Shown: positions 3 to 48,681, counted from the stretch's first letter. The stretch: DNA of 64,000 nucleotides from Gemmatimonadota bacterium (GCA_039586575.1 JBDHKD010000003.1:92451-156450), one strand, 5' to 3'. Made by a program: numbers and translations. The notes: generated by a model not told the origin, from the letters alone.

Positions 3-728
3 CTGCTGGGCACCGTGGACCGCTTCGAGCGGATCGCGCTGACGTCGGGCCTGGAGGTGGCGGTGGACTCGCTGGGGGTCGAGAGCCGCCGAATCACTCT
101 GGCCGAGGGTAGCGATTTCGTCCCCGGCATGGGGGCGTTCGAGCCGGTGCACTACTGGGCGTTCCACGACTCGACGATGGCCGGTGAGCTGAGCCCGGTC
201 TACGAGACCGACCAGGGCTTTCACTTCTTCCAGCTCGAGAGCCGCGTGCCCGAGGGCTACGTCCCGTTCGCCGACGTGGAGCCGGCTGTGGGGCGGCGCG
301 TCGAGCTGGAGAAGAAGAAAGAGGAGGCGCAGCGGATGGCCGCGCGGATGGCGAGCGAGTTGCAGGCCGACGCGAGCCTCGACGCCGTCGCCACCGAATA
401 CGACCTGCTGTATCAGACCAGCACGCTTTTTACGCGGTTCGATTTCGTACCCGGACTCGGTCAGGGTAACGCGGTGATTGGTGCCGCCTTCGGGCTGGAG
501 CTGAATGAGATCGCCGGCCCGATCGAGTCGGACGACCGTCTCTTCTTTGTCCAGCTGGTGGAGCGAGTCGCGCCGAGCCGCGAGGAGTTCGAGGCGATAC
601 GAGAAGACATGCGCGCCCAGCTAACGCAGCAGCGTCAACAGACCGCGCTGGACGAGTGGTTGGCGGAGCTGCGGGAGATGGCGACGATCGAGGATTTCCG
701 GGAACAGATCTTCGTACCGCGCTCCTGA
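3..728 (+). CDS. Parvulin-type peptidylprolyl isomerase (PpiD/SurA family), 5'-truncated by window edge
   Basis: Frame is open from base 3. GE+SPV+ETDxGFH and GE+xGPIE rotamase-like segments, ending in a helical QQRQQ..DEWLAELRE..IED tail typical of PpiD/SurA-like chaperones. Confidence 0.75.
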   Translation: MLGTVDRFERIALTSGLEVAVDSLGVESRRITLAEGSDFVPGMGAFEPVHYWAFHDSTMAGELSPVYETDQGFHFFQLESRVPEGYVPFADVEPAVGRRVELEKKKEEAQRMAARMASELQADASLDAVATEYDLLYQTSTLFTRFDFVPGLGQGNAVIGAAFGLELNEIAGPIESDDRLFFVQLVERVAPSREEFEAIREDMRAQLTQQRQQTALDEWLAELREMATIEDFREQIFVPRS

Positions 729-5749: not shown

Positions 5750-7429
5750 TCATTCCGTCATTGGGATCTTGATCCCGTGTCTGCGTGCCGTTTCGAGCGC
5801 TTCCGGGTAACCCGCGTCGACGTGCCGCATCACCCCGCTGCCCGGATCGTTGGTGAGGACGCGCTGGAGCCGACGTGCGGCGTCCGGCGTGCCATCGGCG
5901 ACGATGACCATGCCGGCGTGGAGAGAGTCGCCGATCCCGACGCCACCGCCGTGATGGAAGCTCACCCAGGTGGCGCCGCTGGCGACGTTCAGCATGGCGT
6001 TCAACACCGGCCAATCGGCGATCGCGTCACTGCCGTCCTTCATCCCTTCCGTCTCCCGGAAGGGGCTGGCGACCGACCCGGTGTCGAGATGGTCGCGACC
6101 GATGACGATGGGCGCCTTCAGCTCGCCGCTGGCTACTAGCTCGTTGATGGCCAGGCCGAACTTGGCGCGCTCGCCCTGGCCGAGCCAGCAGATCCGTGAA
6201 GGCAGGCCCTGGAAGGCGACCTTCTCGCTGGCCATGCGGATCCAACGGTTGAGCGGCTCGTCTTCGGGAAACAACTCCAGCACCAGCTCGTCGGTGCGGT
6301 GGATATCCGCGGGGTCGCCGGAAAGCGCCGCCCAGCGGAACGGGCCTTTGCCGAGGCAGAAGAGGGGGCGCACGTATGCCTGGACGAAGCCGGGGAAGTC
6401 GAAGGCGTTCTCGACGCCCGCATCGCGAGCCTGAGCCCGAATGTTATTGCCGTAATCGAATACGACAGAGCCCTGGCGCTGCAGCTCGAGCATGCCTCGC
6501 ACGTGCTCCGCCATGGAGTCCATCGCTCGCTTCACGTAAGCCTCGGGGTCGCTCTGCCTGAGTTCGTTGGCCTCGGCCAGCGATAGTCCCTGCGGCACGT
6601 ACCCGTTGAGCGCGTCGTGGGCGCTCGTCTGGTCGGTCACCAGATCCGGCGTGATCCCGCGGCGGGAGATCTCCGGGACCACATCCGCACAGTTCCCGAC
6701 CAACCCCACCGAGAGCGCCGCGCCGCGCTCGCGCGCCGCCAGCGCCAGCTCCAGCGCCTCATCGAGGTCGTCAGTAGCGCGGTCGAGGTAGCGTGTCTCC
6801 AAACGCCGCTCGATCCGCGCCGGGTCGACCTCCACTCCCAGGAAGGCGCCACCGTTCATCGTCGCGGCCAGCGGCTGGGCCCCGCCCATACCACCCAAGC
6901 CGCCGGTCAGCACGAGCCGGCCCGACAGCGAGCCTCCGAAGTGCCGGCGCGCCGCCGCCGCGAACGTCTCGTAGGTCCCCTGCAGGATCCCCTGGGTGCC
7001 GATGTAAATCCAGGAGCCGGCCGTCATCTGACCGTACATGATGAGGCCTTTCCGTTCCAGCTCCCTGAAGTAGTCCCACCTCGCCCAGCGCCCTACCAGG
7101 TTCGAGTTCGCGATGAGTACTCGAGGCGCATCAGCGTGGGTCTTGAAGACGCCCACCGGCTTGCCGCTCTGCACCAACAGCGTCTCGTCGTCACCGAGCT
7201 CGCGAAGCGAGCGGACGATCGCCTCATACGCCTCCCACGAGCGCGCAGCGCGACCCGAGCCGCCGTAGATGATCAGCTCGTCTGGCTTCTCGGCGACCTC
7301 GCGGTCGAGGTTGTTCATCAGCATCCTGAGCGCCGCCTCCTGAGGCCAACCTTTGCAGGAGAGCTCTGTGCCTCGTGGCGCTCGTACCTGACGCGTCCCG
7401 ACCTTACGGTTTGGCATCATCTCGATCAC
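5750..7429 (-). CDS. hutU: Urocanate hydratase
   Basis: [54 protein letters not shown]. Confidence 0.98.
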
Positions 7430-10125
7430 CGTGTCTCTTGACGATAGTCGAACTTCACGTCACGCAGATCCTTGAGATTCACCCTGAACTCGAATACGAA
7501 ATTGCCATTTGCGGCTTTGAGGAACTGAAACGTGGCCGCCCAGCGATGCAGGTCACGCTGCAAGCTGAATGCATGATCCACGAACTTTCCCTCTTCAATG
7601 TCGTACTGGCTCCGCCAGGTCAACCTCCAGTTCAGCGTCGGTTGGAACCCGAAGTTCCAGCGGACAGACTGCCGATCGCTCGGCGGGTCCTGTCCCGGCC
7701 GCGGCCGTGTCCGCAGCAGGCTGTAGTCGACGCTCAGCGACCACGGCTGCCTCGCACCACGCGCGCCCCGTTCGCGCTCATCCGGCACGTCTTCGGGACG
7801 CTCCTCGAGCTCTTGGTCCTCGAACTCCTCGGACCGGGGAACGATCCCCCGCCCCTCCCGCAGTCCGCTCGGGTCGCCGAACAGGCCGGCAACCGCGCGC
7901 TCGCCCAACGAGAAACCGAGGTTCAGCTGCGTGAGGAACGGGGCAAAGCGGCGCCGGTCCTCGACTTCCTCGAACAGATCGTGCGAGAAACGTAACGTCA
8001 AGCCTCGCAACAGGTCGGACGTGATGGTGTTGGAGATCGAGTTCGTTATCAGCTCACGCTCGACGAAGTCGTAGCTGAGCGCCGATGTCCGAATGGCGAG
8101 AACCGTCAGCTTGCGCCCCTCGGCGGGCTGGCGGTCGGCGAGGCTATCGCTGGGGACCGAGTCTTGTAACTCTTTTCTTGGCTTGAGCTTAGCCTCGAAG
8201 GTCTGCTGCAGGCCCAGCGTGATCCGGTGCTGCTCGCGGGTGCTGTCGGCCCGGAACCCGCTCAGCCCCGCGAACTCCGGCGACGGCTGCACGGCCGGGC
8301 TGTAGCTCCAATTGATGCCGGTCGAGAACTTGTGGCGGATCCGCTCCGCGACTCCGAAGCCGGGGAAGAAGCCATAGATGTCGCTGTTGAGGGCGGCGTT
8401 AACCGAAACGCGAGTCGGCCCGCCCAAGAAATCGAAGTCGGTCTCGTTGTTGCGGACGAGGATTCCGTCGAGACTCAGGCTCGGGGTCAGCGTCGTCGTG
8501 CCGATCAGCCGCTGCTGGTAGCCGAACGAGGTTCGCCAGTTCAGGGTGCCCTGTTTCGTCTCCGGGTCGAAGAACAGGGTATCGACCACCATAGTCGAAT
8601 CGGGGTCCACGAAAGTCGTGTCGGTCAGCAGGAACGGCTCGTCCGTGGTATCCTGGTTGTAGGAACCGCTCGAGTTCCAACGGAGTGGCCCCAAAGAGAA
8701 GTTGGAGGTGACGGCATTCCTGATCGACGAGCGATCGGACAGCCCCGGTGTCTCCGAGAGTTGGCGATTGAAGCTGCCGCTTCCGGTCCAGGTCAAGCCA
8801 TTGTACCAGCGTTTCTCGAGCGGCGAGCGGGCCGGTGTGATCGCAATCGGGGATAGCGTCAGCGACAGCGATGGCAGAGTGGTGGTCGTGGCCTGCGGCG
8901 AGGTCGCCGGATTGGAGAGCGGCTGGACTCGCTGACCGCTGATGTTGAGCGTACCCCAGTCGAAACGTCGCGTGTAGCCGAGGTCGGAACGTAACTGCTG
9001 CACCAGCCGTTCGGGGTTGAACTCGTTCTCACGTTGGAACTGGGTGCTGGAGACGAACTGGACCGAGGCGCGCAAGTCGGCGCGCTCGCCGAATCTCTGG
9101 TTGTGGTTCCAGGCGAGCGACAGCTCCTTGCTGCCGTTGGGCAGGAGAAAGTACGAGCTGCCGACGCGCCCGTCGATGAACTTCTGGCGCCAGCGGTAGC
9201 GGTAGAAGCCATCGAGCCGTGTCCAGGTGTCGGACCACCAGTCGATACTGAACTGTGTGTCCATGTAGTCGTTGATCGCCCAGTAGTAGCCGACGTTGGA
9301 GATGTGTCTGTTATAGCCGGTCGAGTTGCGGATGATGTCGTTGACACCGAAGCGCAGGGTCAAGATGCCGCTGTGACGGCCCGGCCTGATGTCCTGGGCC
9401 ATGAAGGGGAACCAGAAGACCGGTACGTCGCCGAAATAGACGCGGACCGGCCAAGCGACGACTATGTGGCCCAGCACCAGTTTGATCTTGTCGGACTCGA
9501 AGCGATAGTGTGGATCCGCGAGCTCGCACGATGTGAAGTGTCCGTGCTGCACCCATAGGGTGTCGGTACCTTCCAGGGTGAAGTTGCCCTCGACGTTCCA
9601 TACTTCCCAGCGGGTACGGCCGCCGATGACAGTGCCGACCTTGCGATCGGTATCATAGAAGAACGGACCCTCCTCGCTATCTACTTCCTCGCCTTTGGCG
9701 TTGATCAATTTCGACTTCCCGTAGGCGATCATGTAGCGGGTTTGGCCTTCGTAGGTGACCGAGTCGGCGTGCAGGTTTTCGCCTTGACGCTCGAGGTGCG
9801 CGCGCTGCCGGATGTGGATCGAGCGATCTCCGGTGGAGAACTGCAGCGTGTCACCACGATAGACCACCGGGCGGTAGCCGGGGCGTGCCAGCAACGCTTG
9901 CATCATCGAGTCGGGAGATGGGAACGGCTCGCCGATATCGACGGAGTCGGCCGCCAGTGAATCGGGGGCCTGTTTCGAGTCCTGTCGCACGCGCGTGGTG
10001 TCCTGGGTAAAGGGGGTGGGCGCCGGGGCGGCGGCTGCCAGGTCGTGGACAGATGTGAGGAGTCCCCCGAGCGCGACCGCCAGCGCGGCGGCCAGCGCCC
10101 CCGCGGGCAGGGGCTCAGTCCGCAA
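7426..10125 (-). CDS. lptD: LPS-assembly protein LptD (OstA-like periplasmic domain plus beta-barrel)
   Basis: Signal-like hydrophobic N-terminus, FTSCE..PHYRF..KIKL, PVFWFPF, and C-terminal RDLHRW..FEFRVNL strands. The TTG start at 10125 is inferred. Confidence 0.85.
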
Positions 10126-11467: not shown

Positions 11468-12256
11468 CTAGCGGCAGCTCAGTCGCTGTGCCTGGTCGCG
11501 GGCCAGCCGGGACTCGTCGCTCCTCGGGTAACCAGCCGTTACACGTTGGAAGTACTCACAAGCCGTGTCTTTGTTTCCCTGGTCGACCTGGAGGAGTCCC
11601 GCTTTGTAGAGCGCCGTAGGCGCGGCTCTCGAGTTGGGGTACAGCTCAACGACGCGGTTATACTCGCGAATCGCCCGGCCAGCGTCGCCCTCTTCCCGGT
11701 AGGTCTCCGCAAGGTAGTACTGCGCGTCGGGGGCCAACTCGTCCGCCGGGTAGGCCACCAAGAAGTCCTGGAACCCGGCCCGCGCCGTCTCGATCGCCCC
11801 ACGACGTAACTGTTCGATAGCCGCTGCATACAGGGAGCGGGCGTCTCCACCACCCGCTCCCTGTTCCAACTCACGACCGGCCGGCAGGCTGCTGTCAGGC
11901 GCGGCGAACACATCACCGACGGCCTCGCGCTCTTCCTGCCGTTGCTCCATGCGCTCGCGCAGGCTGCGCAGCACGATCTGGCTCTGACCGAGCAGCTCCT
12001 GGATCTCCACGAGCTGGCGCTCCATGTCGTCGAGCTGGCGAAGCAGGTCGCCCCGCACGGTCACGACCAGCGCCCGTTGGTTCTCGAGCGCCTCGGAGAA
12101 GTACTGCTCGAGCTCAGCCACACCCTCGGCGATGCTGTCCTGCCGGGCGTTGACCTCCGCCAGATCGTAGCGGATCCGGTCGACGTCCTTTTTGGAGGCG
12201 CAGGCGGCCAAGCCCGCGGCCGCCAGGACGAGCCACGGCCTGACAGCGGCTTTCAT
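11468..12256 (-). CDS. cpoB: Tol-Pal protein CpoB/YbgF (lipoprotein: coiled coil plus TPR)
   Basis: LAAC lipobox, coiled coil, FQDFLVAYP..LAPDAQYYLAE; directly after pal. Confidence 0.88.
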   Translation of the reverse strand: MKAAVRPWLVLAAAGLAACASKKDVDRIRYDLAEVNARQDSIAEGVAELEQYFSEALENQRALVVTVRGDLLRQLDDMERQLVEIQELLGQSQIVLRSLRERMEQRQEEREAVGDVFAAPDSSLPAGRELEQGAGGGDARSLYAAAIEQLRRGAIETARAGFQDFLVAYPADELAPDAQYYLAETYREEGDAGRAIREYNRVVELYPNSRAAPTALYKAGLLQVDQGNKDTACEYFQRVTAGYPRSDESRLARDQAQRLSCR

Positions 12257-12273: not shown

Positions 12274-12861
12274 CTAGTTGCCGAGCTGCCCGTGATTGCG
12301 GACCACGAACTCGGCTCGGCGGTTCTGTGCCCAGGCGTCCTCGTTGGAGGCGCGTGCCAGTGGGCGTTCCTCGCCGTAGCTGATCGTGCCGAAGCGGCTT
12401 TGGTCGATGCCGTAGCTCATCAAGTAGCGACGGACCGCTTCCGCACGCCGCTGACCCAGAGCGAGGTTGTACTCGTTGGAGCCGCGCTCGTCGCAGTGCC
12501 CCTCGACGTTCAGGGTAACGCCGGGGTACTCGCGGAGCACGGACACCTTGCGCTGCAGGACCTCTTCGGCATCGGGTCGGATGTCGGACTTATCGAAGTC
12601 GAAGTGGACACGCTCGGCGATGACCGAAAGCACGCGGCTGCGCTCAGCCTCACGGCGACGACGCTCTTCCTCTTCACGTCGGAGTCGTGCCTCCTCCTCC
12701 ATCCGGGCGCGCTCCGCCGCTTCATCCACGGTCGGCTCTTCGACCTGCGGTTCGGGCTCGGGCTCGGGCTCGGGTGGCGGATTGCCGCCGCAGGCGGCCA
12801 CCAGAACCACCAACGCCAACGTCCCCAGCCATCCCGTCGTCTTCTTCCAGGTGCTTGACAT
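12274..12861 (-). CDS. pal: Peptidoglycan-associated lipoprotein
   Basis: VAAC lipobox, (PE)n linker, OmpA-like VHFDFDKS..EGHCDERGSNEYNLALGQRRA..SYGEERP. AGGAG RBS 8 nt before ATG 12861. Confidence 0.96.
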   Translation of the reverse strand: MSSTWKKTTGWLGTLALVVLVAACGGNPPPEPEPEPEPQVEEPTVDEAAERARMEEEARLRREEEERRRREAERSRVLSVIAERVHFDFDKSDIRPDAEEVLQRKVSVLREYPGVTLNVEGHCDERGSNEYNLALGQRRAEAVRRYLMSYGIDQSRFGTISYGEERPLARASNEDAWAQNRRAEFVVRNHGQLGN

Positions 12862-12882
12862 TGCAACCACTCCTAACGGTTA

Positions 12883-14322
12883 TCACTCTCGGGGTCCGCC
12901 TGGGTCCCTACTGCCCGCCTCGGCCCCTACTGTGCTTAGAGAGGGTGAATCTAAGCGGGCGGACCAATCCGGCAAGCGGGCACCGTCTGCGCTCACCAGG
13001 CGCCGGATCCTACCGCTCACGACGTCGAGCACCCAGAGGCCGGCCACGCCGTCGCGCGTCGAGGCGAAGACGATATGGCGGCCGTCGGAGGCCCAGCTGG
13101 GGTCCTCATTGCGGCCGTGCTGGGTAAGCTGGCGTAGGCCGCGGCCATCGGGTGCCACGGTGAAGATCTGGGGTTCGTTGGCCACCCAGCCGTGGAAGGC
13201 TATGCGGTCGCCGGTGGGTGACCAGTCGGGCCCGGCATTATGGACGCTGCGGTCATAGATGTAGGGTGTGAGCAACTCCGCCGAGCCGTTTTCCAGGTCC
13301 TGAACGAAGATATGGAGCTGGCCCAGCCGGTCGGAGTTGAACGCGAAGCGCCGGCCGTCGGGCGCGAATGATGGCGAGAGCGAGTTTGCATAGCGTGCGA
13401 AGGTCGCGCGTTCCGGGCAGCAGCGTCGCACCAGATCGTAAGTATGCACCTCGGTTCGCCCGTCGATGGTTGCGGCGAACCCGAGCCGTGTTCCATCGGG
13501 CGAGTAGGTCGGGGTGAGGTCCATGCCCGGCAGGTCGACGGCGAGCCGTGAGCGGCCCGACTCGAGGTCGATCTCGTAGATCGCCGGGTCCTGGTTTTGG
13601 TAAGACATGTAGGCGATACGATCACTCGTGGGCGCCCAAGCCGGCGAGAGAGCGATCGAGCTGTCTCGCGAGACGCGCCGTGCATCGAAGCCGTCGCTGT
13701 CGACAACGTAGATCTCGGAGCCGCCGGGACCGCCGGCGACGAAGGCGACGCGGGTCGCGGCGATTCCCCGGCTACTCGTTGCCCAACCAACCACCTCGTC
13801 AGCGGCGCTGTGGACCGCCTGCCGGAAGTCGGGATGGCGAAGCGGTGGAAGCTCGAAGGCGCGGACCTCTTGCAGAATCCGGAACACGACATCGTGCAGC
13901 GACAGTCTCAGGACCGGCGCGTCGGGCGTCCCTTCCACAGCACCGACCACCAGCCAAACGGCGCCCAGCTCGTCCCAGAGGCCATAGTTGATGGGGCCCT
14001 CGACCGGAAGATCCTCGCCGACGGGCATGACCTGGAGGCGGTCGCTGTAGTCGAGGTCCCGGAGGATGATCCGCCGCACGCTATCGGCCAACTCCCTCAG
14101 CTCCGCGGGCGCCGGGATCAGCGGCATGACGGTTCCCGGGCGGAAGGAGGGCTGGTAGAGAATCCCCACACGCACATCGGTGGGGATGCTGTCGCGGGCG
14201 GGCACCTGCGCCGACGTCGACATCGGTGTCAGAGTCATGAGGGCGAGTACCAGCAGGGCTCGCCGAAAGGTGCATTGGCTACGTTTCGCCGTGTTGATCG
14301 TCGCCTTCGTCGTCATAGTCAT
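12883..14322 (-). CDS. tolB: TolB beta-propeller protein
   Basis: Signal peptide and PD40 repeats (SPAWAP, TPTYSPDG, SPSFAPDG, PDWSP, PSWASDG); tol-pal synteny. Confidence 0.92.
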   Translation of the reverse strand: MTMTTKATINTAKRSQCTFRRALLVLALMTLTPMSTSAQVPARDSIPTDVRVGILYQPSFRPGTVMPLIPAPAELRELADSVRRIILRDLDYSDRLQVMPVGEDLPVEGPINYGLWDELGAVWLVVGAVEGTPDAPVLRLSLHDVVFRILQEVRAFELPPLRHPDFRQAVHSAADEVVGWATSSRGIAATRVAFVAGGPGGSEIYVVDSDGFDARRVSRDSSIALSPAWAPTSDRIAYMSYQNQDPAIYEIDLESGRSRLAVDLPGMDLTPTYSPDGTRLGFAATIDGRTEVHTYDLVRRCCPERATFARYANSLSPSFAPDGRRFAFNSDRLGQLHIFVQDLENGSAELLTPYIYDRSVHNAGPDWSPTGDRIAFHGWVANEPQIFTVAPDGRGLRQLTQHGRNEDPSWASDGRHIVFASTRDGVAGLWVLDVVSGRIRRLVSADGARLPDWSARLDSPSLSTVGAEAGSRDPGGPRE

Positions 14323-19417: not shown

Positions 19418-20602
19418 CTAGGATGGCATCTTGCGGATCAGGCGCACCGGCAGTCCCACGTTCACCGTCGGGTGCCGCATATGGATCAGGCGTAAGGTGC
19501 TGGTCCGCTCGGTGACGCGCACCACGCGGCCCAACCCGACATACTCCTCGGGCAGGCTGAGCCCCTGGGAGCGCCGTTCCCCGACGAAGAGCTCGAACTC
19601 ATCGCCGACCGTTACACCCTGATCGCGACCGACGTCAACGAAGACGAAGTCCTCATTGGTAGCGATCGGCTGTTCGTCCAGCAGCGCGACGAGCTCGCCG
19701 CCGGGTCCCGCGGCCACGGGCTCGGCGAAGACGCCGCGCTCGAACTGGAACCTTTCGGCCTCGATTGCCTGATCGCCGACCAGGACCCGCTCGTACACCT
19801 CGATCACCACCGCGATGGACACGTCTTCATAGACCGCCGAGATCGTCGCCATCCCGGTCGGCCGGACGACGCGGCCCCACGGCCTCACCCGTCGCTCGAC
19901 CCGGAAGAGGAGCATGCGGTCCCCGGGTTCCGGGGGCTCGCCACCCGGATGTCGGATGTAGACGCGACCATACTGCGGAATCGTCGAAAGCGGCTCGACC
20001 GCAAAGCCTCGCGGGACGGCGGCTTCCAAGATCTCGCCCCGCGCCCCCAACTCCTCCAGGTTCAGGAGCATGCCGGCCCGGTAGAAGTCGTCCGCCGTCA
20101 CGGCCATGGCGGGCACGGGGGCGACCGGCTGATAGGTCAGCGTTTGCGTCGTGATGTCGGGCGGCAAGAAGATCGTCCTCTGCTCGGCCCCGGGAATCTG
20201 CGGCGGCCCTTCAGGCGTGACCTCCGGAGTCGGCATCTCCGGCGTGGGCACGCGCTCGGCCACTTCTTCGCCGGGCACCCGCTCCTCTCCCGGAACCGGC
20301 GGCCTGACGACTTCGCCGGGGCCCGGCACCTGCAGCTCCTCGGCCGGATAGATCCAGTGAGGATCCTCCACGACGATCGTGTTGATCCGGTAGATCTCCG
20401 GCCAGAGGAAGGGGTCGCTCAGGTAGAACTCCGCCAGGTCCCACAGCGTATCACCCGTGCGGACTACGTGCACACGACGGCCCTCTTGGGGCGTCGCTTC
20501 CTGCTGCCGTTCTTGAGCTTGAAGGGGGAGGGCTTCAGGCAGTAGAGCCGCAAGCGCTGCGGCTACGGACAATACCAAGCGCTTAGAAGGGCAGGTCGTC
20601 AC
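19418..20602 (-). CDS. Secreted LysM-domain protein, TsaP-like
   Basis: Signal peptide, HVVRTGDTLWDLAEFYLSDPFLWPEIY..PHWIYP LysM, Pro-rich linker, beta-rich C-terminus. The GTG start at 20602 is inferred from GGAGG. Confidence 0.75.
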   Translation of the reverse strand: MTTCPSKRLVLSVAAALAALLPEALPLQAQERQQEATPQEGRRVHVVRTGDTLWDLAEFYLSDPFLWPEIYRINTIVVEDPHWIYPAEELQVPGPGEVVRPPVPGEERVPGEEVAERVPTPEMPTPEVTPEGPPQIPGAEQRTIFLPPDITTQTLTYQPVAPVPAMAVTADDFYRAGMLLNLEELGARGEILEAAVPRGFAVEPLSTIPQYGRVYIRHPGGEPPEPGDRMLLFRVERRVRPWGRVVRPTGMATISAVYEDVSIAVVIEVYERVLVGDQAIEAERFQFERGVFAEPVAAGPGGELVALLDEQPIATNEDFVFVDVGRDQGVTVGDEFELFVGERRSQGLSLPEEYVGLGRVVRVTERTSTLRLIHMRHPTVNVGLPVRLIRKMPS

Positions 20603-21020
20603 CCTCCTCCAGCGATTCCGCCGGGAAATCATCATACTCCTCACCCCCATAGGTCGGAGCCTTCTGGAACTCCAAGGCCCCCTCTCCGCGGCCACCCAAC
20701 ATCACCATATCATTGGCCACGATCTCGGTACTGTAACGCTTCTGGCCGTTCTGGTCTTCCCACTGACGGTACTGAATCCGCCCCTCGATGAAGATCCGGT
20801 CACCCTTCTTCAGATACTGCTCGACAATCTCAGCCAGCTTGTTCCAGGCCACGACCCGGTGCCACTGCGTATCCTCCTGCATCTCACCCGACCGGCTCTG
20901 CCAGCGGCGGTTCGTCGCCACCGACAGCGTCGCCACTCGCGCGCCGCCCGGCGTGGTGCGGATCTCGGGGTCGTTGCCCAGGTTGCCGATGATGATCGCC
21001 TTGTTGACGCTGCGTGACAT
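20583..21020 (-). CDS. ssb: Single-stranded DNA-binding protein
   Basis: SVNKAIIIGNLGNDPE, IFIEGRIQYRQW, C-terminal DDLPF; GGAGGAG RBS. Confidence 0.97.
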   Translation of the reverse strand: MSRSVNKAIIIGNLGNDPEIRTTPGGARVATLSVATNRRWQSRSGEMQEDTQWHRVVAWNKLAEIVEQYLKKGDRIFIEGRIQYRQWEDQNGQKRYSTEIVANDMVMLGGRGEGALEFQKAPTYGGEEYDDFPAESLEEGDDLPF

Positions 21021-24973: not shown

Positions 24974-27652
24974 TCAGCCTTCGAGACTGTCGAACCACGC
25001 GTCGATCTTGTCGTCGCCCAGCTCATCCCCGCTGGCCGCCTCGGCTGCCGAATCGGCCTCCGGCAGCTCCTCCACCAATTGCCGCGCGCGGGCCAGCATC
25101 GGAGCGGCGCCGAGTTGCTCGAAGAGCTCGACCGCGCGTTCCGCCGCCAAGCGTGCCTCTGCCGGCTGAGCACGCGCCAGTACGTGTGCCTGGTGATACT
25201 GGAGGAATCCCTCGCCGTACGGGTCTATCTCGGTCGTTTCTCCGATTCCCTGCTGCGCGACCATGCCAGCGAGCCAGGCATCGCTGTCGAGGTCGATGAC
25301 CCGGATGCGTACGGCATCCCCTTCGGCGCGCCGCTCGAACCAGCCTTCCTTGCCCTGGTAGAGCTGCTCGAGCCGCGCCGCCTCCTGCCACGCCTGCAGC
25401 TCATCGCCCAGCTCGAGATGGGCCAGCGCCCGGATGGCCGTGCTCTGGAACTCCTCCCTCCAGGCACCGCTTTCCGGCAGCAGCTGGCGCACCTCGTCGG
25501 TAGCCTCCAGTACCGCGGCGTAGTCGCCCCGCTCGAAGGCGAGGCGTGCGATTCCCGTCCTACAGCGCAAGGCGAGTGATTGGTCGTCCAGCTCCTCGGC
25601 CAGCTGGAGACCCGAGCGGAACAAGTGCAGCGCCCGATCGAAGTCGCCGCGCAAGGTCAGCAGTTCGGCGATATTGGCCTGCATGGCGATCTTCTGATCG
25701 GCCACGCCGGCGACCTCCATGCTTTCCAGCGCCGACTGCCAGTGGTGCAGCGCGCCCCCCCAATCGCCGGCCCGGAAGTTCGCCGTGCCGAGCAGGTCGT
25801 GGCAGACCGCGACGCCGCCCAGCTCGTCGACCTGGCCGAATACCTCGAGGGCCCGCTGCGCCAGCTGGCGCCCTTCCTCCGGGTTGCCCCACGACACGTG
25901 CACGCGGGCGAGACGGTAGGCGGCTTGTGCGACCGTTTCCGCACTGCCGCTCTGCTCAGCGACGTACAGCGCTTCCTCGGCCATGAGCAGGGCCTCCTCC
26001 GCCCGGCCGACGCGTTCGGCCACGACGCAGGCCAGGTCGAGCGCCGCCACCAGCTCCTCGGAGAGCTCGGAGGTTCGTGCCCGGTCGACCAAGCCAGCAG
26101 CGAGAGCCGACACGTCCAGTGGCTCGACGCCGCGCTCGAGCAGCAGCCACCCGAACATCACACCGGCCGTCAGTTCGGTCACCAGATCGCCGAGCTGGTG
26201 CGCGCGCTCGGCTACCTCCTTCAACAGCAGCTCGGCCTCGGGCTCGCGGTCCGTGGCGGCGTAGATTCTGGCCAGCCGGTTCTGGATCTGCAGTCGCTGG
26301 CTCTCGTCCTCGCAGCTCTGCGCCGCGGTGCGGAGGAACTCATCCACCTCGTAGAGAGCATAGAGTCGCTCGGCCAGGTCAGCGGCTTTGAGCGACCACT
26401 CGAGGTTCTTGCCCGTGAAGCCGGCCACCAAGTACAGCGCGGCGATCTCGTCTGCGATCTCCTTCGCACCCGAGCCCGCCAACTTCTCCAGGGTGCCCGC
26501 CGCACGGTCGAGCAGGTGAGCGCGCCGCTTGCCGGAGACACGGGAACTAATCACACGGCGGACGAGAGGGTGTCGGAAGCGATAGCGTACGGACCGGCTA
26601 CCGGTCGCCCAACGCCGTTCGCCGATCTTGCGAATGAGGCCGTGCTTCGCCTCGGCCGCCTCAAGCTGGGCGAGTGCCTCCTCGGTCTTCTTGCCGGCCT
26701 GTGCGGCAACGACGGTCGAGTCGATCACCGAGCCGCACAGCGCCGCCGCTTCGAGCGTCCAGCGCAGGTTGGGCTCGAGCGAGTCGAAGCGGCCGGCGAT
26801 GACGGTCTCGGTCTTGGTCTCGGGGCTGGGCAAGTCGCTCTCACGAACGGAGTACTTGAAGAGACGCTTGCGCAGGGTACCTCGCTCGACGAGCCAGCGC
26901 AGCAGCTGCTCGGCCCGCAACGCGTTACCGCGAGCGGCACCGTTAAGCCAGGCCCCGAACTCGTCGGCGAACGAGCCGTCGAGCACATTCTCGGCGAGTT
27001 CGTGGATCGCGTCGGCCTCGAGCTCGCGAACCGCAAGCTCGACCGCGGACGGTCCGAGTCGGTGTTGCAGGGGCTTGATGGAGACGGTGGTCGGCGATTC
27101 GGAGGCCTCGTAGGTCGCGAGCACCAGGACGGGCAGTTGGCCGAGAGCGGCACCGAGCCGGGCCAGTAGATCGAGCGATGAGCGGTCGCTCCACTGTATG
27201 TCGTCGATAAAGAAGACGAGGACGCGCTGGCGGGTAATGGCGCGGCAGAGAGCGATGAACTGATCGAACAGCGCGTTGCGGCCCGGCGAAGGCGCGGCGC
27301 TGGGCATCCACCCGGGCACTTCTTTGCGGACGAGTGAGGCGAGGGCGGCATCGCCGCTGAGACCGAAGAGCTCGGCGAGCAGATCGCGGAACGGCCCATA
27401 CGGTCGATACGCGGTCTGATCCTCTATGCAGCGCGCTTCGAGCACGACGGCCGAAGGGTCCGCACCCCTGATCCGGGCGAGGAAGCCGCGGGCCAGCGCC
27501 GTCTTGCCGACGCCGCTCGCGCCGGTCAGGATCACGAAGCGTCCCCGAGCGTCCTTCTCGGTCTGGAGATCCCGCACGATCCGATCGAGCTGTGCCAGCT
27601 CGGTGGCCCGGGCTACCAGGCGACCTGCGCTCTCGTGCTCGCTCGCTCCCAT
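24974..27652 (-). CDS. STAND-class (AAA_16-like) NTPase with C-terminal TPR array and no obvious effector domain
   Basis: Walker A GASGVGKT, Walker B VFFIDDIQW, YRFRHPLVR winged-helix motif, TPR-like repeats, acidic tail. Confidence 0.75.
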   Translation of the reverse strand: MGASEHESAGRLVARATELAQLDRIVRDLQTEKDARGRFVILTGASGVGKTALARGFLARIRGADPSAVVLEARCIEDQTAYRPYGPFRDLLAELFGLSGDAALASLVRKEVPGWMPSAAPSPGRNALFDQFIALCRAITRQRVLVFFIDDIQWSDRSSLDLLARLGAALGQLPVLVLATYEASESPTTVSIKPLQHRLGPSAVELAVRELEADAIHELAENVLDGSFADEFGAWLNGAARGNALRAEQLLRWLVERGTLRKRLFKYSVRESDLPSPETKTETVIAGRFDSLEPNLRWTLEAAALCGSVIDSTVVAAQAGKKTEEALAQLEAAEAKHGLIRKIGERRWATGSRSVRYRFRHPLVRRVISSRVSGKRRAHLLDRAAGTLEKLAGSGAKEIADEIAALYLVAGFTGKNLEWSLKAADLAERLYALYEVDEFLRTAAQSCEDESQRLQIQNRLARIYAATDREPEAELLLKEVAERAHQLGDLVTELTAGVMFGWLLLERGVEPLDVSALAAGLVDRARTSELSEELVAALDLACVVAERVGRAEEALLMAEEALYVAEQSGSAETVAQAAYRLARVHVSWGNPEEGRQLAQRALEVFGQVDELGGVAVCHDLLGTANFRAGDWGGALHHWQSALESMEVAGVADQKIAMQANIAELLTLRGDFDRALHLFRSGLQLAEELDDQSLALRCRTGIARLAFERGDYAAVLEATDEVRQLLPESGAWREEFQSTAIRALAHLELGDELQAWQEAARLEQLYQGKEGWFERRAEGDAVRIRVIDLDSDAWLAGMVAQQGIGETTEIDPYGEGFLQYHQAHVLARAQPAEARLAAERAVELFEQLGAAPMLARARQLVEELPEADSAAEAASGDELGDDKIDAWFDSLEG

Positions 27653-27699: not shown

Positions 27700-28110
27700 C
27701 TAGGACCGCGCCATCTCGAGTATCTTGCTCCAAGTGTCTGCGGAGACCGGCATCACGGAGAGGCGGGGGATCCGGACGAGTTCCCAATCGCCGAACCCAC
27801 CACTCCCTTTGATCTCGGATAATGTCACGGGTCGCGGCAGTCGCTTCAGGGGGCGGACCTCGAAGACGAGGAGGCGCTCGTCATCCGCATGCGGATCGCT
27901 GTAGGCCTCCGTCACGACGCGCGCTATTCCGACGATGGCCTTCTCCGAGCCTGTGTGGTAGAAGAAGGCCTCATCGCCCGGCTCTACGCCGCGCATGTGC
28001 TTGAGGGCAGCGGGGTTCTTAACGCCGTCCCAGATCGCCCGCCCTTCTCGCTCCAGATCGTCGAACGAGTAGTCACCCGGCTCGCTCTTCAGCAGCCAGC
28101 GGCCGGGCAC
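27700..28110 (-). CDS. EVE-domain protein
   Basis: WLLKSEP..YSFDDL, WDGVKN..A..HMR, AFFYHTG, WELVRIPRLSVMPV; start overlaps the rel stop by 1 nt (TAGTG). Confidence 0.92.
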   Translation of the reverse strand: MPGRWLLKSEPGDYSFDDLEREGRAIWDGVKNPAALKHMRGVEPGDEAFFYHTGSEKAIVGIARVVTEAYSDPHADDERLLVFEVRPLKRLPRPVTLSEIKGSGGFGDWELVRIPRLSVMPVSADTWSKILEMARS

Positions 28111-35313: not shown

Positions 35314-36054
35314 CTACCCTTGTGCGCCTTCGCTGAGGCGCAATTTCTCGGCCTCCGGAGTCTCTGGATGGTTCCGTAAGAGGCGATCCCGAGTCCGCTC
35401 GGCCTCATCGCTGTACCCGAGCTTGGTGTAGCTTTCGTACAACTTCAGCAACGCCTCCGGCTCGACCGTGGCGCCGTTGTAAGTCTCCAGCAAGTGCTCG
35501 AGGTACACGATCGCCGAGTCGTAGGCTCTGCGCCTGAAGTAGTAAACGGCATTCAGGTAGTACTTACGCGCGATCTTGTCCGTGAGTTCCCGCACGCGCT
35601 GGGCGGCCAGCTCGGCGTACGGGCTCCCGGGGTAGAGGAGCGCGACCGCGCGGCATTGGTTGATCGCTTCGTCGGTATACTCCTGGTCGAGCTCGGGGCG
35701 CGGTGACATCTCGTAGTAGGACTCGCAGGCGCGATAGCGGGCCTCGTCGGCGAGTCGACCGGCGGGCCGGCTCTGGGCCAAGCGCAAGAACTCGGCTGCC
35801 GCCGTCAGATACTGCTTCTTATTGTAGTAGCAGCGGCCGACCACCAGCTGGGCGCTATCGACTTTCTGGTGGCCGGGATCACCGAAGATGAAGCGCTGCA
35901 TCGCCTGGATGCTGCGGTCCCAATCGCGCCCCTCGTACTTCTCCATGCCGATGCTGAACAGGTCCTCGGCGGACAGTCCGGGGGGCAGCTCTTTCGCACA
36001 GCCTGTCAGTCCCATTACCGCTACCACGAGCAGCGTCAGGCGTCGGGCGCTCAC
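35314..36054 (-). CDS. bamD: Outer-membrane protein assembly lipoprotein BamD
   Basis: LTGC lipobox, TPRs, ELDQEYT..AI, YPGSPY, ARKYYLNA.YY. Confidence 0.9.
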   Translation of the reverse strand: MSARRLTLLVVAVMGLTGCAKELPPGLSAEDLFSIGMEKYEGRDWDRSIQAMQRFIFGDPGHQKVDSAQLVVGRCYYNKKQYLTAAAEFLRLAQSRPAGRLADEARYRACESYYEMSPRPELDQEYTDEAINQCRAVALLYPGSPYAELAAQRVRELTDKIARKYYLNAVYYFRRRAYDSAIVYLEHLLETYNGATVEPEALLKLYESYTKLGYSDEAERTRDRLLRNHPETPEAEKLRLSEGAQG

Positions 36055-37709: not shown

Positions 37710-38447
37710 CTAGGCTTTCGCAGCCCCCTCGGCAAGCGAACGGCGGCGGCGGAATAGCCGCCGCCAGAGCCCGTACTTGAGGATGCAGCGGAAGGCGGAG
37801 ACACCGTCTTTCCAGTTGATCTTCTTGCCCTCGGCGTATGTGCGGCCGCTGTAGGAGATACCGACCTCGTAGATCCGCCAACCACCGAGGGCCAGCTTGG
37901 CGGTGATCTCGGGCTCGAGGCCGAAGCGGTTCTCCTCGATCTCGAGGCTCTCCAGCACCTCACGACGGAACATCTTGTAGCAGGTCTCCATGTCGGTGAG
38001 GTTCAGGTTGGTCACCATGTTGGAGAGGAGAGTGAGCAGCTTATTCCCCACGTAGTGCCAGAAGTAGAGGACACGGTGGGGGCCTTCGCCGGCGAACCGC
38101 GAGCCGTAGACGGCGTCCGCCTTGCCCTGCTCGATGGGCCCGATCAACCGCACGTACTCGTTGGGATCGTATTCGAGATCGGCGTCCTGAATGATCACCG
38201 CATCGCCCGTGGCCTTCGCCACGCCGGAGCGGATGGCCGCCCCTTTGCCCTGGTTCTTCTCGTGAAGCACCAGCGCGTCGATCTGGCCACCCTCGAGCAA
38301 ACCCTGTAGCACGTCGCGGGTGCCGTCGGTCGAGAAGTCATCGACGCAGATGATCTCGACATCCGCCCGCACCGCGCGCACCCGGCCGACGACTTCCTCC
38401 ACCGTCTCGCGCTCGTTGTAGACGGGAATCAGAACTGAGAGCTTCAC
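37710..38447 (-). CDS. GT2 glycosyltransferase (DPM1/polyprenol-phosphate glycosyltransferase-like)
   Basis: [51 protein letters not shown]. Confidence 0.92.
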
Positions 38448-40713: not shown

Positions 40714-40770
40714 ATCGAAGCTCGAGAGAATGATGACCAGAGACTCGGGGGTGGTCCGGAAGGGCCACCT

Positions 40771-41952: not shown

Positions 41953-41954
41953 GG

Positions 41955-48147: not shown

Positions 48148-48681
48148 TCAGGTGCCGTCCCCATCGGTTGAAGCTTCCTGCTGGGCGATGTAGTAATCGA
48201 GCGAGTCGACCAGGAAGAAGGTCGTCTTCCCGACCAGCCTCTCGCGGTTCGCAGCGTCAAAGAAGCCGCGCTGCATATATACGTCCAGCAACGAATCGGT
48301 CAGCGCATAGACCGAGCCGGCGACCAGCACGTCGTCCCCGACACCGACCGGGATCGCCGACTCGAGAACCGGGCGGTCCAGAATCAACGGATAGCCCGCC
48401 ATACCCGGCAGATCGGTGGCCAATACCGCCCGACCGAGGCTATCGCTGACCGTGACCGGCCCGAGCAGCACACGCCGACCCGAGTACAACTCGGGATTGA
48501 TCACGAAGGTCGTATCAGCGATCCTGGGCAGCTGGGCGCCCAGCGAATCGGCTGCCGACAACCCGGGGCCGATGCTCGAAGTCGCCGAATAGAGCCAATA
48601 CATGAATGCGACAACCACGATCACGGCTGCCGCCAACCACGGCCCGGTGCTGGTCTTCCACTTCCCGAGCACGTTCGCCAT
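48148..48681 (-). CDS. Hypothetical membrane-anchored exported protein
   Basis: N-terminal TM (WLAAAVIVVVAFMYWLY) and a beta-rich soluble domain; GAGGAG RBS. Confidence 0.7.
   Translation of the reverse strand: MANVLGKWKTSTGPWLAAAVIVVVAFMYWLYSATSSIGPGLSAADSLGAQLPRIADTTFVINPELYSGRRVLLGPVTVSDSLGRAVLATDLPGMAGYPLILDRPVLESAIPVGVGDDVLVAGSVYALTDSLLDVYMQRGFFDAANRERLVGKTTFFLVDSLDYYIAQQEASTDGDGT

Follow-up and report, generated by a model that had tools for sequence, protein, structure and literature searches.

Extracytoplasmic proteins of the Gemmatimonadota appear to be under selection for the tripeptide D-[S/T]-[aliphatic or Thr], the acceptor sequon of Bacteroidota-type general O-glycosylation, and we consider a system homologous to that of the Bacteroidota to be the best reading of the available sequences, with a probability of about 0.72. 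The excess of this motif is confined to exported proteins, and it extends beyond the 64-kb stretch of DNA in which it was recognized (hereafter, the window) to the phylum as a whole, as represented by 115 homologues of the outer-membrane protein LptD, 103 homologues of a 177-aa membrane protein, 69 genomes, and one 500-kb replicon.

The window derives from a metagenome-assembled genome of the Gemmatimonadota, a phylum that NCBI places in the FCB group, in agreement with the first-pass annotation, which had spoken of a related FCB lineage. That annotation had also proposed a general O-glycosylation system not described for this lineage; our full-text literature searches found no paper on O-glycosylation in Gemmatimonadota, and the phylum-wide signature supports the proposal itself, with glycan attachment and the enzymes responsible being what we infer from it.

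Sequons in LptD and other exported proteins of the window

The protein richest in sequons is LptD, whose assignment to the FCB-type LptD_2 family rests on a Pfam match (PF19838; E=2.4e-36) and on an AlphaFold model (pLDDT 79.9) in which a β-jellyroll at residues 87-245 is followed by the barrel, the two-part fold expected of the family. The best 37 PDB matches recovered by Foldseek with this model are all LptD (E=1e-24 to 1e-8), and a tblastn search of a plasmid collection returned LptD matches from Bacteroidota only. Where about 14 sequons in clustered low-complexity loops had been counted by eye, a scripted recount found exactly 14 D-[ST]-[AILMTV] tripeptides in the same clusters, against 3.29 expected; none of 2000 composition-preserving shuffles reached this number. 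The gene and the sites, with residue numbers followed by window coordinates, are as follows.

7426..10125, minus strand: lptD, outer-membrane LPS-assembly protein of the FCB-type LptD_2 family, 899 aa, start ATG at 10125
9868..10065, minus strand: periplasmic N-terminal linker (residues 21-86) between signal peptide and β-jellyroll, with sequons at 42 (9994-10002), 55 (9955-9963), 60 (9940-9948), and 72 (9904-9912)
9391..9867, minus strand: β-jellyroll (residues 87-245, delimited by the secondary structure of the model; periplasmic location taken from solved homologous LptD structures), with sequons at 92 (9844-9852), 121 (9757-9765), and 188 (9556-9564)
8575..8652, minus strand: cluster of four sequons (492, 502, 509, and 515) in a β-hairpin insertion of the barrel region
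8140..8247, minus strand: barrel-region loop sequons at 627 (8239-8247), 655 (8155-8163), and 660 (8140-8148)

The linker and jellyroll, which are periplasmic by homology, hold 7 of the 14 sites, 3 of them at pLDDT <50, and the other 7 lie in barrel loops. Residues 20-65 fall below a pLDDT of 50 throughout and are predicted to be disordered; the hairpin insertion is modeled as strands with a low-confidence tip (residues 510-519), and the sequons at 655 and 660 lie inside a loop (residues 648-671) that is disordered in the model.

Exported or membrane-anchored proteins of the window with further sequons include the following.

15..728, plus strand: PpiD/SurA-like periplasmic peptidyl-prolyl isomerase (Pfam Rotamase_2), 3′ part, cut by the window edge; two sequons (66-74 and 168-176)
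11468..12256, minus strand: CpoB/YbgF-like TPR lipoprotein of the Tol-Pal cluster (Pfam TPR_6/YfiO and a lipobox); two sequons (12131-12139 and 11561-11569)
12883..14322, minus strand: TolB (Pfam PD40/TolB_N); two sequons near the mature N terminus (14185-14193 and 14077-14085)
35314..36054, minus strand: BamD lipoprotein (Pfam YfiO); two sequons (35851-35859 and 35512-35520)
36051-37079: TPR protein; one sequon
48148..48681, minus strand: Gemmatimonadota-specific bitopic membrane protein of 177 aa with an N-terminal anchor and a C terminus predicted to be periplasmic; sequons at 45 (48541-48549), 56 (48508-48516), 80 (48436-48444), 129 (48289-48297), and 159 (48199-48207)

With genes and signal peptides called by our own heuristics, the nine exported proteins of the window contain 29 sequons against 9.4 expected (3.1-fold), a value again attained in none of 2000 shuffles; when LptD and the 177-aa protein are set aside, 10 are found against 5.06 (p about 0.03). 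The 50 cytoplasmic proteins have 29 against 31.25 expected, and the polytopic inner-membrane proteins have 1 against 1.78. Control motifs of the same composition stay near the expectation of 9.4 in the exported set (12 for the reversed motif, 9 for [ST]-D-x, and 8 for D-x-[ST]), and the variants E-[ST]-x and N-[ST]-x (2 and 6 occurrences) show no excess. Most of the earlier counts by eye were reproduced, namely, five in the 177-aa protein, two each in the isomerase fragment, TolB, and BamD, and one in the TPR lipoprotein, as well as three in SecA, none in UvrB, three in Rel, four in STAND, and none in TPR698 among the cytoplasmic controls; CpoB and HutU have two each, where one had been reported. 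The roughly 6-fold difference in density claimed between LptD and the cytoplasmic controls was likewise recovered (1.56 against about 0.25 sites per 100 aa).

Individually, BamD has 2 sequons against 0.41 expected and the 177-aa protein has 5 against 0.97 (none of 2000 shuffles as high). The latter retrieved no family in a Pfam search. Its 103 homologues carry a mean of 4.09 sequons against 0.66 expected, with four sites kept in 81 to 103 of the 103, and the substitutions seen column by column agree with the position specificity of the sequon described below. Two of its conserved sites fall within structured segments that are strictly conserved and may have a structural role.

Conservation, turnover, and position specificity across the phylum

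Across 115 Gemmatimonadota homologues (33 to 100% identity), LptD carries a mean of 10.8 sequons against 3.36 expected, with five control motifs close to expectation. The concentration is most marked in the linker, where 79 homologues average 4.81 sequons against 0.34 after shuffling, individual linkers ranging from 0 to 10, and where 77% of the Asp residues stand at the head of a sequon, compared with 3.6% for cytoplasmic proteins. In an alignment of 64 sequences, the sequon columns are the sole conserved islands of the linker: the Asp is almost invariant, Ser and Thr interchange (e.g., 41 S to 19 T), and the third position moves within L/A/V/T/I/M. Judged from this alignment, the pattern is one of degenerate conservation of a motif and not of a sequence. 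The jellyroll columns 92, 121, and 188 retain a sequon in 36, 52, and 42 of the 64 homologues, respectively; the hairpin sites at 492-515 are partly conserved (22 to 32 of 64), and the column of residue 660 has a sequon in 45 of 54.

Several of these positions recur in the Bacteroidota. LptD proteins of Parabacteroides, Prevotella, and Phocaeicola have 8 or 9 sequons against about 3 expected, and these three proteins share with the Gemmatimonadota LptD a layout of signal peptide, linker with three or four tandem sequons, and a sequon at the first jellyroll strand. The residue-92 site of the window LptD aligns with a sequon in all three, and the residue-660 column coincides with a sequon column of theirs. 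In the O-glycoproteome of Porphyromonas gingivalis, LptD ranks among the outer-membrane-associated proteins in which sites, found or predicted, are most numerous, these being located in its periplasmic domain, and one peptidyl-prolyl isomerase and one TPR protein are reported to be O-glycosylated (PMC8729774).

In 80 Gemmatimonadota loci, comprising ±10 kb around lptD, signal-peptide proteins contain 1037 sequons against 460 expected (2.26-fold) and cytoplasmic proteins contain 457 against 415 (1.10-fold), totals that come from syntenic regions and rest on about seven exported families and related sequences, so that p values computed from them overstate independence. Pal (4.4-fold), CpoB (157 against 44.7; 3.5-fold, with a conserved N-terminal ARQ-DS-x site), the PpiD-like family (202 against 70.8; 2.85-fold; the complete gene of the isomerase codes for 603 aa with SurA_N domains), and LptD (2.8-fold) are enriched, against 0.3- to 1.7-fold for the cytoplasmic families. 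Exported families without strong enrichment are TolB, with a weak excess (119 against 90; 1.32-fold), TolA (0.49-fold), and one lipoprotein family (0.18-fold). The median enrichment over 69 genomes is 2.54 for exported and 0.79 for cytoplasmic families. Within exported proteins, the first 40 residues of the mature chain account for 12% of the sequence and for one-third of the sequons.

A replicon that is unrelated and nonsyntenic to the lptD loci, the megaplasmid of the cultured species Gemmatirosa kalamazoonensis, gave the same direction of effect: over 500 kb, 74 signal-peptide proteins have 184 sequons against 114 expected (1.61-fold; shuffle sd 10.8; Poisson p=1e-9), against 226 and 233 (0.97-fold) for the cytoplasmic proteins. 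Outside the phylum, no excess was found in the Escherichia coli orthologues (6 against 9.9; 0.61-fold; LptD, 1 against 2.8) or in 23 annotated exported proteins of Pseudomonas aeruginosa, whose GC content is 66% (20 against 18.8; 1.07-fold). A bulk positive control, 190 kb of Parabacteroides distasonis, showed no overall enrichment in its signal-peptide proteins (37 against 49), and its distribution is bimodal, with none in the fimbrillins and 8 to 10 in each of a few proteins; enrichment summed over many proteins is therefore an imperfect indicator of an O-glycosylation system.

An unbiased scan of the exported set from the lptD neighborhoods recovered the specificity of each position. At position 1, Asp alone is enriched (2.26, against 0.94 for Glu and 0.75 for Asn); at position 2, Ser ranks highest (2.85) and Thr is raised too (1.51); at position 3, Ile (2.94), Leu (2.88), Val (2.44), Ala (1.84), and Thr (1.83) are enriched, and Met and Ser are not. 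The same scan on cytoplasmic proteins revealed nothing comparable. In G. kalamazoonensis, Asp and Ser are again the top residues at the first two positions, the pattern being weaker and in the same direction. At each of the three positions, this profile matches the published preference of the Bacteroidota sequon (PMC12871550). The two comparisons suggested at the outset thus bore the proposal out: enrichment survives correction for composition and is confined to extracytoplasmic proteins, and in these D-[ST] is enriched before allowed residues and depleted before others. In cytoplasmic proteins, hydrophobic residues are mildly favored after D-[ST] (allowed, 1.10-fold; other, 0.60-fold).

Predicted mechanism, candidate enzymes, and rival readings

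[quoted passage not shown] There, a putative membrane oligosaccharyltransferase would attach it to exposed sequons, at the Ser or Thr, once the protein bearing them has been exported across the inner membrane. LptD would then be the most heavily modified protein of the window, with three to seven sites in the disordered linker after the signal peptide, others on the jellyroll in the periplasm, and still others in the long loops of the barrel.

In Bacteroidales, the LFG-type locus, which adjoins metG, combines a Wzx flippase with conserved and variable glycosyltransferases; no wzx or glycosyltransferase array was found in the 64-kb window, and no flippase, LFG-type locus, or oligosaccharyltransferase turned up in the sequence covered (the window, the lptD neighborhoods, and part of one megaplasmid). 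The O-oligosaccharyltransferase has not been identified even in Bacteroidota (PMC12871550). In a 2026 preprint, YfhO, with its remote resemblance to PMT, is predicted to be the transferase of the Bacteroidota; P. gingivalis, a glycosylating species, lacks it. We saw no GT39 or YfhO gene in the window or the related loci examined, and 10 large membrane proteins encoded on the G. kalamazoonensis megaplasmid included no GT-C enzyme. The window does encode a GT2 glycosyltransferase that most closely resembles polyprenyl-phosphate sugar synthases, namely, the dolichol-phosphate mannose synthase of Pyrococcus furiosus (5mlz; E=3e-18), ArnC, GtrB, AglJ, PpgS, and PgfS, all NCBIfam scores being below the curated cutoffs; its gene adjoins genes for UDP-GlcA and GDP-6-deoxyhexose precursors.

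Other explanations of the signature have to be weighed against these observations. That the excess reflects a high content of D, S, T, and aliphatic residues in exported proteins and linkers might be suggested by the clustering of LptD sites in low-complexity segments and by an expected count per residue that is higher in exported than in ribosomal proteins. However, shuffles within each protein and within the linker preserve composition and still leave a 3- to 14-fold excess, the permuted and E-/N-[ST]-x motifs remain close to expectation, and the high-GC control, P. aeruginosa, is flat; we assign next to no probability to such an artifact, which the shuffle and permuted-motif controls refute. 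It is unlikely, to a lesser degree, that D-[ST]-hydrophobic is selected for a reason other than glycosylation, such as chaperone or protease docking, a helix N-cap or Asx/ST-turn, or another modification. Some structured conserved sites would suit this explanation, given that LptD residue 72 caps a helix and that, in the 177-aa protein, the sites at 129 and 159 are each an invariant DS[LI], as would the mild cytoplasmic preference noted above and the lack of an identified glycosylation enzyme in the sequence covered. Yet the bulk of the excess falls in disordered, otherwise unconserved linkers free of fold constraint, E. coli and P. aeruginosa show none in the corresponding orthologues, the profile matches the experimentally defined Bacteroidota sequon at all three positions, and the linker sites recur in Bacteroidota LptD, which is reported to be among the proteins richest in found or predicted sites.

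The sequons could also be a relic of an FCB ancestor that glycosylated its proteins, kept by Gemmatimonadota without an active system. Homologous positions of several sites in LptD of the two phyla and the absence of machinery in the sequence covered are compatible with this, but we regard it as very unlikely: in the absence of selection, a motif of three residues would not survive in a disordered linker over divergences such as those sampled (down to 33% identity), whereas here the Asp is almost invariant and the other two positions vary within the allowed set only. The sites also turn over, as seen in the 0 to 10 of LptD linkers and in Pal linkers, which have gained one to three in some clades and none in that of the window, and enrichment extends to unrelated accessory proteins encoded by the G. 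kalamazoonensis megaplasmid. A different chemistry at the same sequon, in which a PMT/YfhO-like GT-C enzyme adds single sugars stepwise in the periplasm from a polyprenyl-phosphate-monosaccharide, draws on the resemblance of the window GT2 to polyprenyl-phosphate sugar synthases, on its nucleotide-sugar neighbors, and on the YfhO proposal. The modification of lipid A and LPS also draws on such genes, however, and nothing ties the GT2 gene, with its subthreshold scores, to proteins; the YfhO proposal is itself a prediction, and P. gingivalis glycosylates without YfhO. We regard this chemistry, too, as very unlikely. Glycosylation of these sites by a system homologous to that of the Bacteroidota probably accounts for the signature. 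There is an even chance that D-[S/T]-aliphatic O-glycosylation predates the Bacteroidota and was present in their common ancestor with Gemmatimonadota, possibly across the wider FCB group, with the N-terminal glycosite cluster of LptD retained since. If so, profiling of families common to both sequon-enriched phyla and absent from unenriched ones would directly narrow the search for the oligosaccharyltransferase, core-glycan flippase, and ligase, enzymes sought for more than 15 years, and would also test the YfhO proposal.

Comparison with known glycosylation systems

The PglL/PilO/PglS systems of Neisseria, Burkholderia, Acinetobacter, and Pseudomonas resemble the predicted system in the general or semigeneral periplasmic O-glycosylation of exported proteins with a lipid-linked glycan, often in disordered, Ala/Pro-rich regions. 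They differ in lacking a strict sequon and favoring low-complexity regions or a C-terminal Ser (PMC12645811), whereas the Gemmatimonadota signature is a sharp D-[ST]-aliphatic motif, of which P. aeruginosa exported proteins show no excess. N-glycosylation by Campylobacter PglB (D/E-X1-N-X2-S/T) is likewise general and periplasmic, acts on exported targets, and uses a short sequon with an acidic residue upstream of the acceptor, but it is linked to Asn within a five-residue motif, and N-[ST]-x stands at 0.75-fold in Gemmatimonadota. O-mannosylation by the PMT (GT39) enzymes of Actinobacteria and the activity of YfhO-type GT-C enzymes are extracytoplasmic, act on Ser/Thr or wall polymers, and use polyprenyl-phosphate sugars from DPM1-like GT2 enzymes such as the one encoded in the window; PMT, however, has no D-[ST]-x sequon.

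General O-glycosylation of the Bacteroidota has been described as unique to that phylum, and the Gemmatimonadota counterpart is predicted from sequence; an LFG-type metG-wzx-glycosyltransferase locus was not seen in the Gemmatimonadota sequence covered, and the lptD-neighborhood set shows no enrichment of Met or Ser at position 3. In other respects, the two agree: the motif is the same, with Asp and not Glu, Ser slightly favored over Thr, and position 3 taken by Thr or an aliphatic residue. In both, the signature is confined to noncytoplasmic proteins; the Gemmatimonadota sites, too, may gather in segments of the periplasm that are soluble or disordered, as those of the LptD linker and jellyroll would. 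The classes of target protein also correspond, comprising the periplasmic domain of LptD, a peptidyl-prolyl isomerase, and TPR or BamD-type lipoproteins, and the architecture of the LptD linker is common to both phyla.

Sequon excess in exported proteins

The window (64 kb, GC ~65%) carries ~69 of its 71 called genes on the minus strand, and its cumulative GC skew declines steadily throughout. Pfam and NCBIfam scans gave the following gene order.

Gene order in the window
PpiD/SurA-like PPIase (cut by the window edge), polyprenyl synthase, cytoplasmic TPR protein, HutI, HutU
7426-10125 (-), LptD, the 899-aa outer-membrane LPS-assembly protein; then TatC and NrdR
Complete Tol-Pal cluster: CpoB, Pal, TolB, TolA, TolR, TolQ
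HemA, CcsA-like protein, SSB, RimI/TsaB/TsaE, UvrB, STAND ATPase, EVE protein, Rel, RadC, SecA, NadD, BamD
Two TPR proteins and, adjoining these and BamD, a nucleotide-sugar cluster at 37710-45242 (-)
HemB, HemD, a 177-aa bitopic protein without known family (48148-48681, -), ribosomal-protein/SecY operon

The nearest LptD homologues (70% identity) are from named Gemmatimonadota, a phylum that the NCBI taxonomy includes in the FCB group, and assembly GCA_039587075.1 carries the window protein. Neither tRNAs nor Rfam families, including ribosomal-protein leaders, were detected in the 64 kb, though the S10, spc and alpha operons are present. A STAND-type AAA_16/TPR (MalT-like) ATPase (24974-27652) and an EVE-domain protein (27700-28110) lie between uvrB and rel. 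An exported ~400-aa protein (19418-20635) has no Pfam family and a weak LysM-like NCBIfam match; its gene is kept adjacent to that of SSB in 38 Gemmatimonadota loci.

The first-pass annotation held that the exported proteins are loaded with the tripeptide D-[ST]-[AILMTV], the sequon of Bacteroidota O-glycosylation. A script recount reproduced exactly the 14 sequons in LptD, as well as the 5 in the 177-aa protein and all remaining counts other than those of CpoB and HutU, each of which has two rather than one. Given their composition, LptD and the 177-aa protein are expected to have 3.29 and 0.97 sequons, respectively, and in neither case was the observed count reached in 2,000 composition-preserving shuffles (0/2000). 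In the window, no excess is seen for control tripeptides of identical composition ([ST]-D-x, D-x-[ST] and the reversed sequon) or for variants headed by E or N.

A scan of genome contigs for LptD yielded 80 syntenic and phylogenetically related Gemmatimonadota lptD loci, with flanks of up to 10 kb on each side, spanning Gemmatimonadales, Longimicrobiales and unclassified members. Gene calls came from a log-odds codon model fitted to the Pfam-validated genes of the window, after calling by GC3 only had proved unreliable, and proteins were localized with a conservative signal-peptide and lipobox heuristic; both were checked against the annotated window. An initial form of the signal-peptide heuristic mislabeled Rossmann-fold N termini and ribosomal proteins and was tightened, so that the labeling errors that remain weaken the contrast and do not produce it. 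A single non-syntenic replicon was added: 500 kb (395 called genes, 72% GC) from the megaplasmid (1.1 Mb) of Gemmatirosa kalamazoonensis KBS708, a cultured organism, with accessory genes that are unrelated to those of the window.

Sequons observed / expected from shuffling at constant composition
Window, exported proteins (n = 9): 29 / 9.4; 3.1x
Window, exported proteins minus the two top proteins: 10 / 5.06; p about 0.03
Window, cytoplasmic proteins (n = 50): 29 / 31.25
Window, polytopic inner-membrane proteins: 1 / 1.78
80 loci, signal-peptide proteins: 1037 / 460; 2.26
80 loci, signal-peptide proteins minus filter-matched LptD (about 20 of about 70): 2.07
80 loci, cytoplasmic proteins: 457 / 415; 1.10
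80 loci, polytopic membrane proteins: 1.03
G. kalamazoonensis, 74 signal-peptide proteins: 184 / 114; 1.61
G. kalamazoonensis, cytoplasmic proteins: 226 / 233; 0.97
G. kalamazoonensis, polytopic membrane proteins: 56 / 58; 0.97

Permuted control motifs are all near 1 in the 80 loci, the totals of which rest on few families because synteny is conserved. Among these families, the ratio is highest for Pal (4.4x), CpoB (3.5x), PpiD-like proteins (2.85x) and LptD (2.8x), lower for an exported protein with weak LysM similarity (1.35x) and for TolB (1.32x), and below expectation for TolA (0.49x) and one lipoprotein family (0.18x); cytoplasmic families range from 0.3x to 1.7x. Across 69 genomes, the median ratio is 2.54 for exported families, with no genome below 1.29, and 0.79 for cytoplasmic families (paired Wilcoxon p=1.7e-10, with independence overstated by the kinship among the genomes). 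A residue-by-residue scan that did not assume the motif recovered it: only Asp is enriched at position 1 (2.26, followed by Gly at 1.19, Glu at 0.94 and Asn at 0.75), Ser (2.85) and Thr (1.51) are raised at position 2, and the five highest values at position 3 belong to Ile (2.94), Leu (2.88), Val (2.44), Ala (1.84) and Thr (1.83). The cytoplasmic proteins show no such pattern.

The G. kalamazoonensis segment is the nearest approach to the proteome-wide comparison of exported and cytoplasmic proteins that had been proposed at first pass, and the predicted contrast was recovered there, with a shuffle mean of 114.3 (sd 10.8) and a Poisson p of 1e-9 for the signal-peptide set. Control motifs lie between 0.8 and 1.2, and the residue scan again places Asp at the top of position 1 and Ser at that of position 2, with Met, Thr, Leu and Ala leading position 3.

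Site conservation in LptD, the 177-aa protein and Pal

The 115 full-length LptD homologues (33-100% identity), every named one of which is from Gemmatimonadota, have a mean of 10.8 sequons versus 3.36 expected, with five control motifs near expectation. In an alignment of 64 of these sequences, nine columns have a sequon in half or more of the proteins. The linker (residues 21-86), which joins the signal peptide to the jellyroll, is rich in Pro, Ala and Arg and is unconserved except for the sequons, which form its sole conserved islands. Within sequon columns, Asp hardly ever varies, Ser and Thr replace each other (e.g., 41 S to 19 T in one column) and the third residue varies, almost only among L, A, V, T, I and M. 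What is conserved here is a degenerate motif and not a particular sequence. In the linkers alone (79 homologues, mean of 67 aa), there are 4.81 sequons (range of 0 to 10) versus 0.34 after within-linker shuffling, and 77% of the linker Asp residues head a sequon, versus 3.6% of those in the cytoplasmic proteins of the window.

An AlphaFold model of LptD built from the same alignment (pLDDT 79.9) retrieved only LptD structures among its best 37 PDB matches in Foldseek searches. In this model, sequons 42, 55 and 60 fall within a segment with pLDDT <50 (residues 20-65), and residue 72 caps the helix 73-80. The jellyroll (87-245), a periplasmic domain in solved LptD structures, contains sequons 92, 121 and 188. 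Seven sites lie in the barrel region, for which strand counting gave an inconsistent parity as to membrane side; the model places residues 492-515 in a hairpin insertion whose tip is modeled with low confidence, residue 627 in the loop 610-631, and residues 655 and 660 in a disordered loop (648-671).

More generally, the first 40 mature residues make up 12% of the exported sequence but hold a third of the sites, as in the Pal linker past the lipobox. The Pal proteins of other Gemmatimonadota clades (three loci compared: L042, L052 and L062) have a poly-Pro linker followed by one to three sequons, and the window Pal (12274-12870) has a (Pro-Glu)n linker behind its lipobox and zero sequons; the solutions adopted in this linker are lineage specific. 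The 103 homologues of the 177-aa protein have a mean of 4.09 sequons versus 0.66 expected. Two of its sites are in a variable stretch past the membrane anchor and vary between Ser and Thr and at position 3; two others are invariant DS[LI] motifs in structured segments. Its gene comes right after rplQ (L17), where the ribosomal-protein/rpoA operon ends; the protein lacks a Pfam family, and its named homologues (9 among the 105 matches listed) are all from Gemmatimonadota.

In 32 loci from Longimicrobiales and other Gemmatimonadota, the gene immediately downstream of lptD encodes a ~380-aa lipoprotein (e.g., L045:12943-14067, L021:8169-9257 and L050:11105-12250); in the window, this place is taken by hutU and hutI. 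The position of the lipoprotein suggests an LptD partner, perhaps LptE-like. The 32 members are strongly depleted in sequons (10 observed versus 55 expected), and glycosylation might be selected against in this protein.

Alternative explanations and candidate enzymes

The sequon excess is real and is not explained by composition: the shuffles and permuted motifs exclude such an artifact. A purely structural role for the tripeptide is unlikely, as most of the excess is found in disordered linkers and it is absent from the orthologues in E. coli and P. aeruginosa. The E. coli K-12 proteins (LptD, SurA, PpiD, TolA, TolB, TolR, Pal, CpoB and ThiB) have 6 sequons versus 9.9 expected, and 23 annotated exported proteins of Pseudomonas aeruginosa (66% GC) have 20 versus 18.8 expected. 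E. coli LptD itself has 1 versus 2.8 expected, which indicates that the LptD fold does not by itself produce the motif and rules out the turns of outer-membrane beta-barrels as its cause. E. coli CpoB (L082:8599-9390, the retrieved E. coli cpoB gene) has four sequon-like tripeptides versus 0.95 expected in an organism without such a system; so high a count in one protein can be due to chance.

It is likewise improbable that the sequons are the relic of an ancestral system, given that degenerate purifying selection still maintains the motif where overall identity is 33%, that the sites turn over and that unrelated accessory proteins are also enriched. The same tripeptide may nevertheless serve a function that does not involve a glycan. 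Our preferred reading is that the same O-glycosylation system, probably homologous, is present in a second phylum. The view that no such system had been described for Gemmatimonadota was borne out by full-text searches combining Gemmatimonadetes or Gemmatimonadota with O-glycosylation or glycoprotein, which returned nothing relevant, and a 2025 review regards sequon-directed O-glycosylation as unique to Bacteroidota. If the prediction holds, the only sequon-driven bacterial O-glycosylation system would extend to abundant bacteria of soil, sediment and marine habitats. The core envelope machines of Gemmatimonadota (LptD, the BamD, CpoB and Pal lipoproteins and PpiD) would then probably be glycoproteins, which matters to structural and proteomic work, and a deep comparative contrast would be available for phylogenetic profiling of the missing oligosaccharyltransferase, core flippase and ligase. 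Because cultured strains exist, the prediction is cheap to test.

The analysis shows a sequence signature and its selective maintenance, from which we infer the mechanism by analogy with Bacteroidota (PMC12871550). A glycan would be built on undecaprenyl phosphate, flipped into the periplasm and moved onto the Ser/Thr of exposed sequons in proteins already out of the cytoplasm. For the Bacteroidota transferase, YfhO is an in silico proposal from 2026 and is absent from Porphyromonas gingivalis. With E. coli LuxS as bait for the Bacteroidales yfhO neighborhood, no Bacteroidales record was found among the 25 matches listed out of 40. Ten large polytopic proteins encoded on the G. kalamazoonensis plasmid proved to be transporters or DUF2339 proteins, with no GT-C enzyme among them. 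The nucleotide-sugar cluster of the window has the following content.

Nucleotide-sugar cluster, 37710-45242 (-)
37710-38447, GT2 glycosyltransferase (245 aa)
UDP-xylose-synthase/ArnA-like SDR
UDP-glucose 6-dehydrogenase
NTP_transf_5 protein
SDR reductase
GDP-mannose 4,6-dehydratase
UDP-ManNAc-dehydrogenase-like enzyme

The best matches of the GT2 are polyprenyl-phosphate sugar synthases (DPMS 5mlz, ArnC, GtrB, AglJ, PpgS and PgfS). Together with the sugar genes, it could serve protein glycosylation, for instance by feeding a periplasmic GT-C enzyme, but could equally serve LPS/lipid A modification; as a glycosylation gene it is a lead only. A Parabacteroides distasonis gene (L085:19895-21661) that adjoins an anaerobic sulfatase-maturation gene carries the annotation "glycosyltransferase family 39" (PMT-like GT-C) and is a possible additional candidate, beside YfhO, for the Bacteroidota transferase.

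Comparison with the Bacteroidota system

As a bulk positive control, we used 190 kb of P. distasonis from a plasmid record that is really chromosomal, in which the signal-peptide proteins have 37 sequons versus 49 expected. The distribution is bimodal: fimbrillins and DUF4906 proteins have about zero, and a few proteins have 8 to 10. One cluster (L087:10189-21578) encodes about ten fimbrillin and DUF4906 lipoproteins with almost none, next to periplasmic proteins with 8 to 10. This suggests avoidance of sequons in surface polymers. It also implies that mean enrichment understates the system and that the aggregate ratio is an imperfect indicator. The aggregate ratio was therefore dropped as a calibrator in favor of orthologue-matched controls.

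Several PLSDB plasmid records are likewise really chromosomal (among the retrieved records L084-L087 and L091, NZ_OY725834.1 and NZ_OY725790.1; also L092 and L093). The lptD gene is found on P. distasonis "plasmid 45" and "plasmid 89," both of which also bear bamA or proS, on Phocaeicola massiliensis "plasmid 38" and on a 1.77-Mb replicon of Prevotella sp. F0039; an 847-kb P. aeruginosa "plasmid" bears tol-pal, relA and alaS.

Exported proteins encoded around lptD in P. distasonis, Prevotella and Phocaeicola have 47 sequons versus 29.7 expected (1.58x), with a cytoplasmic ratio of 1.18x, and the LptD proteins have 8 versus 3.2, 9 versus 3.6 and 8 versus 2.9 expected (2.5-2.8x). On this orthologue-matched measure, Gemmatimonadota show a signal no weaker than that of Bacteroidota. 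The three Bacteroidales LptD proteins also share the layout of their Gemmatimonadota counterparts, with a signal peptide followed by a low-complexity linker containing three or four tandem sequons (e.g., DSLAQTDSLLVAPTDSTTLAGDSI and DTLNVDTTLVDTLSVDTV). Both groups have a sequon at the first strand of the jellyroll (Y-Q-A-T-DSI in Bacteroidales and Y-R-G-DTL in the window LptD) and a common sequon column in a C-terminal loop; the aligner accounts for part of the coincidences in the linker but not for these two, which are in structured regions. Finally, an O-glycoproteome study of P. gingivalis (PMC8729774) places LptD among the outer-membrane-associated proteins richest in found or predicted sites, which lie in its periplasmic domain, and reports O-glycosylation of a peptidyl-prolyl isomerase and of a TPR protein; the sequon excess in Gemmatimonadota falls on the same protein classes as these O-glycoproteins.
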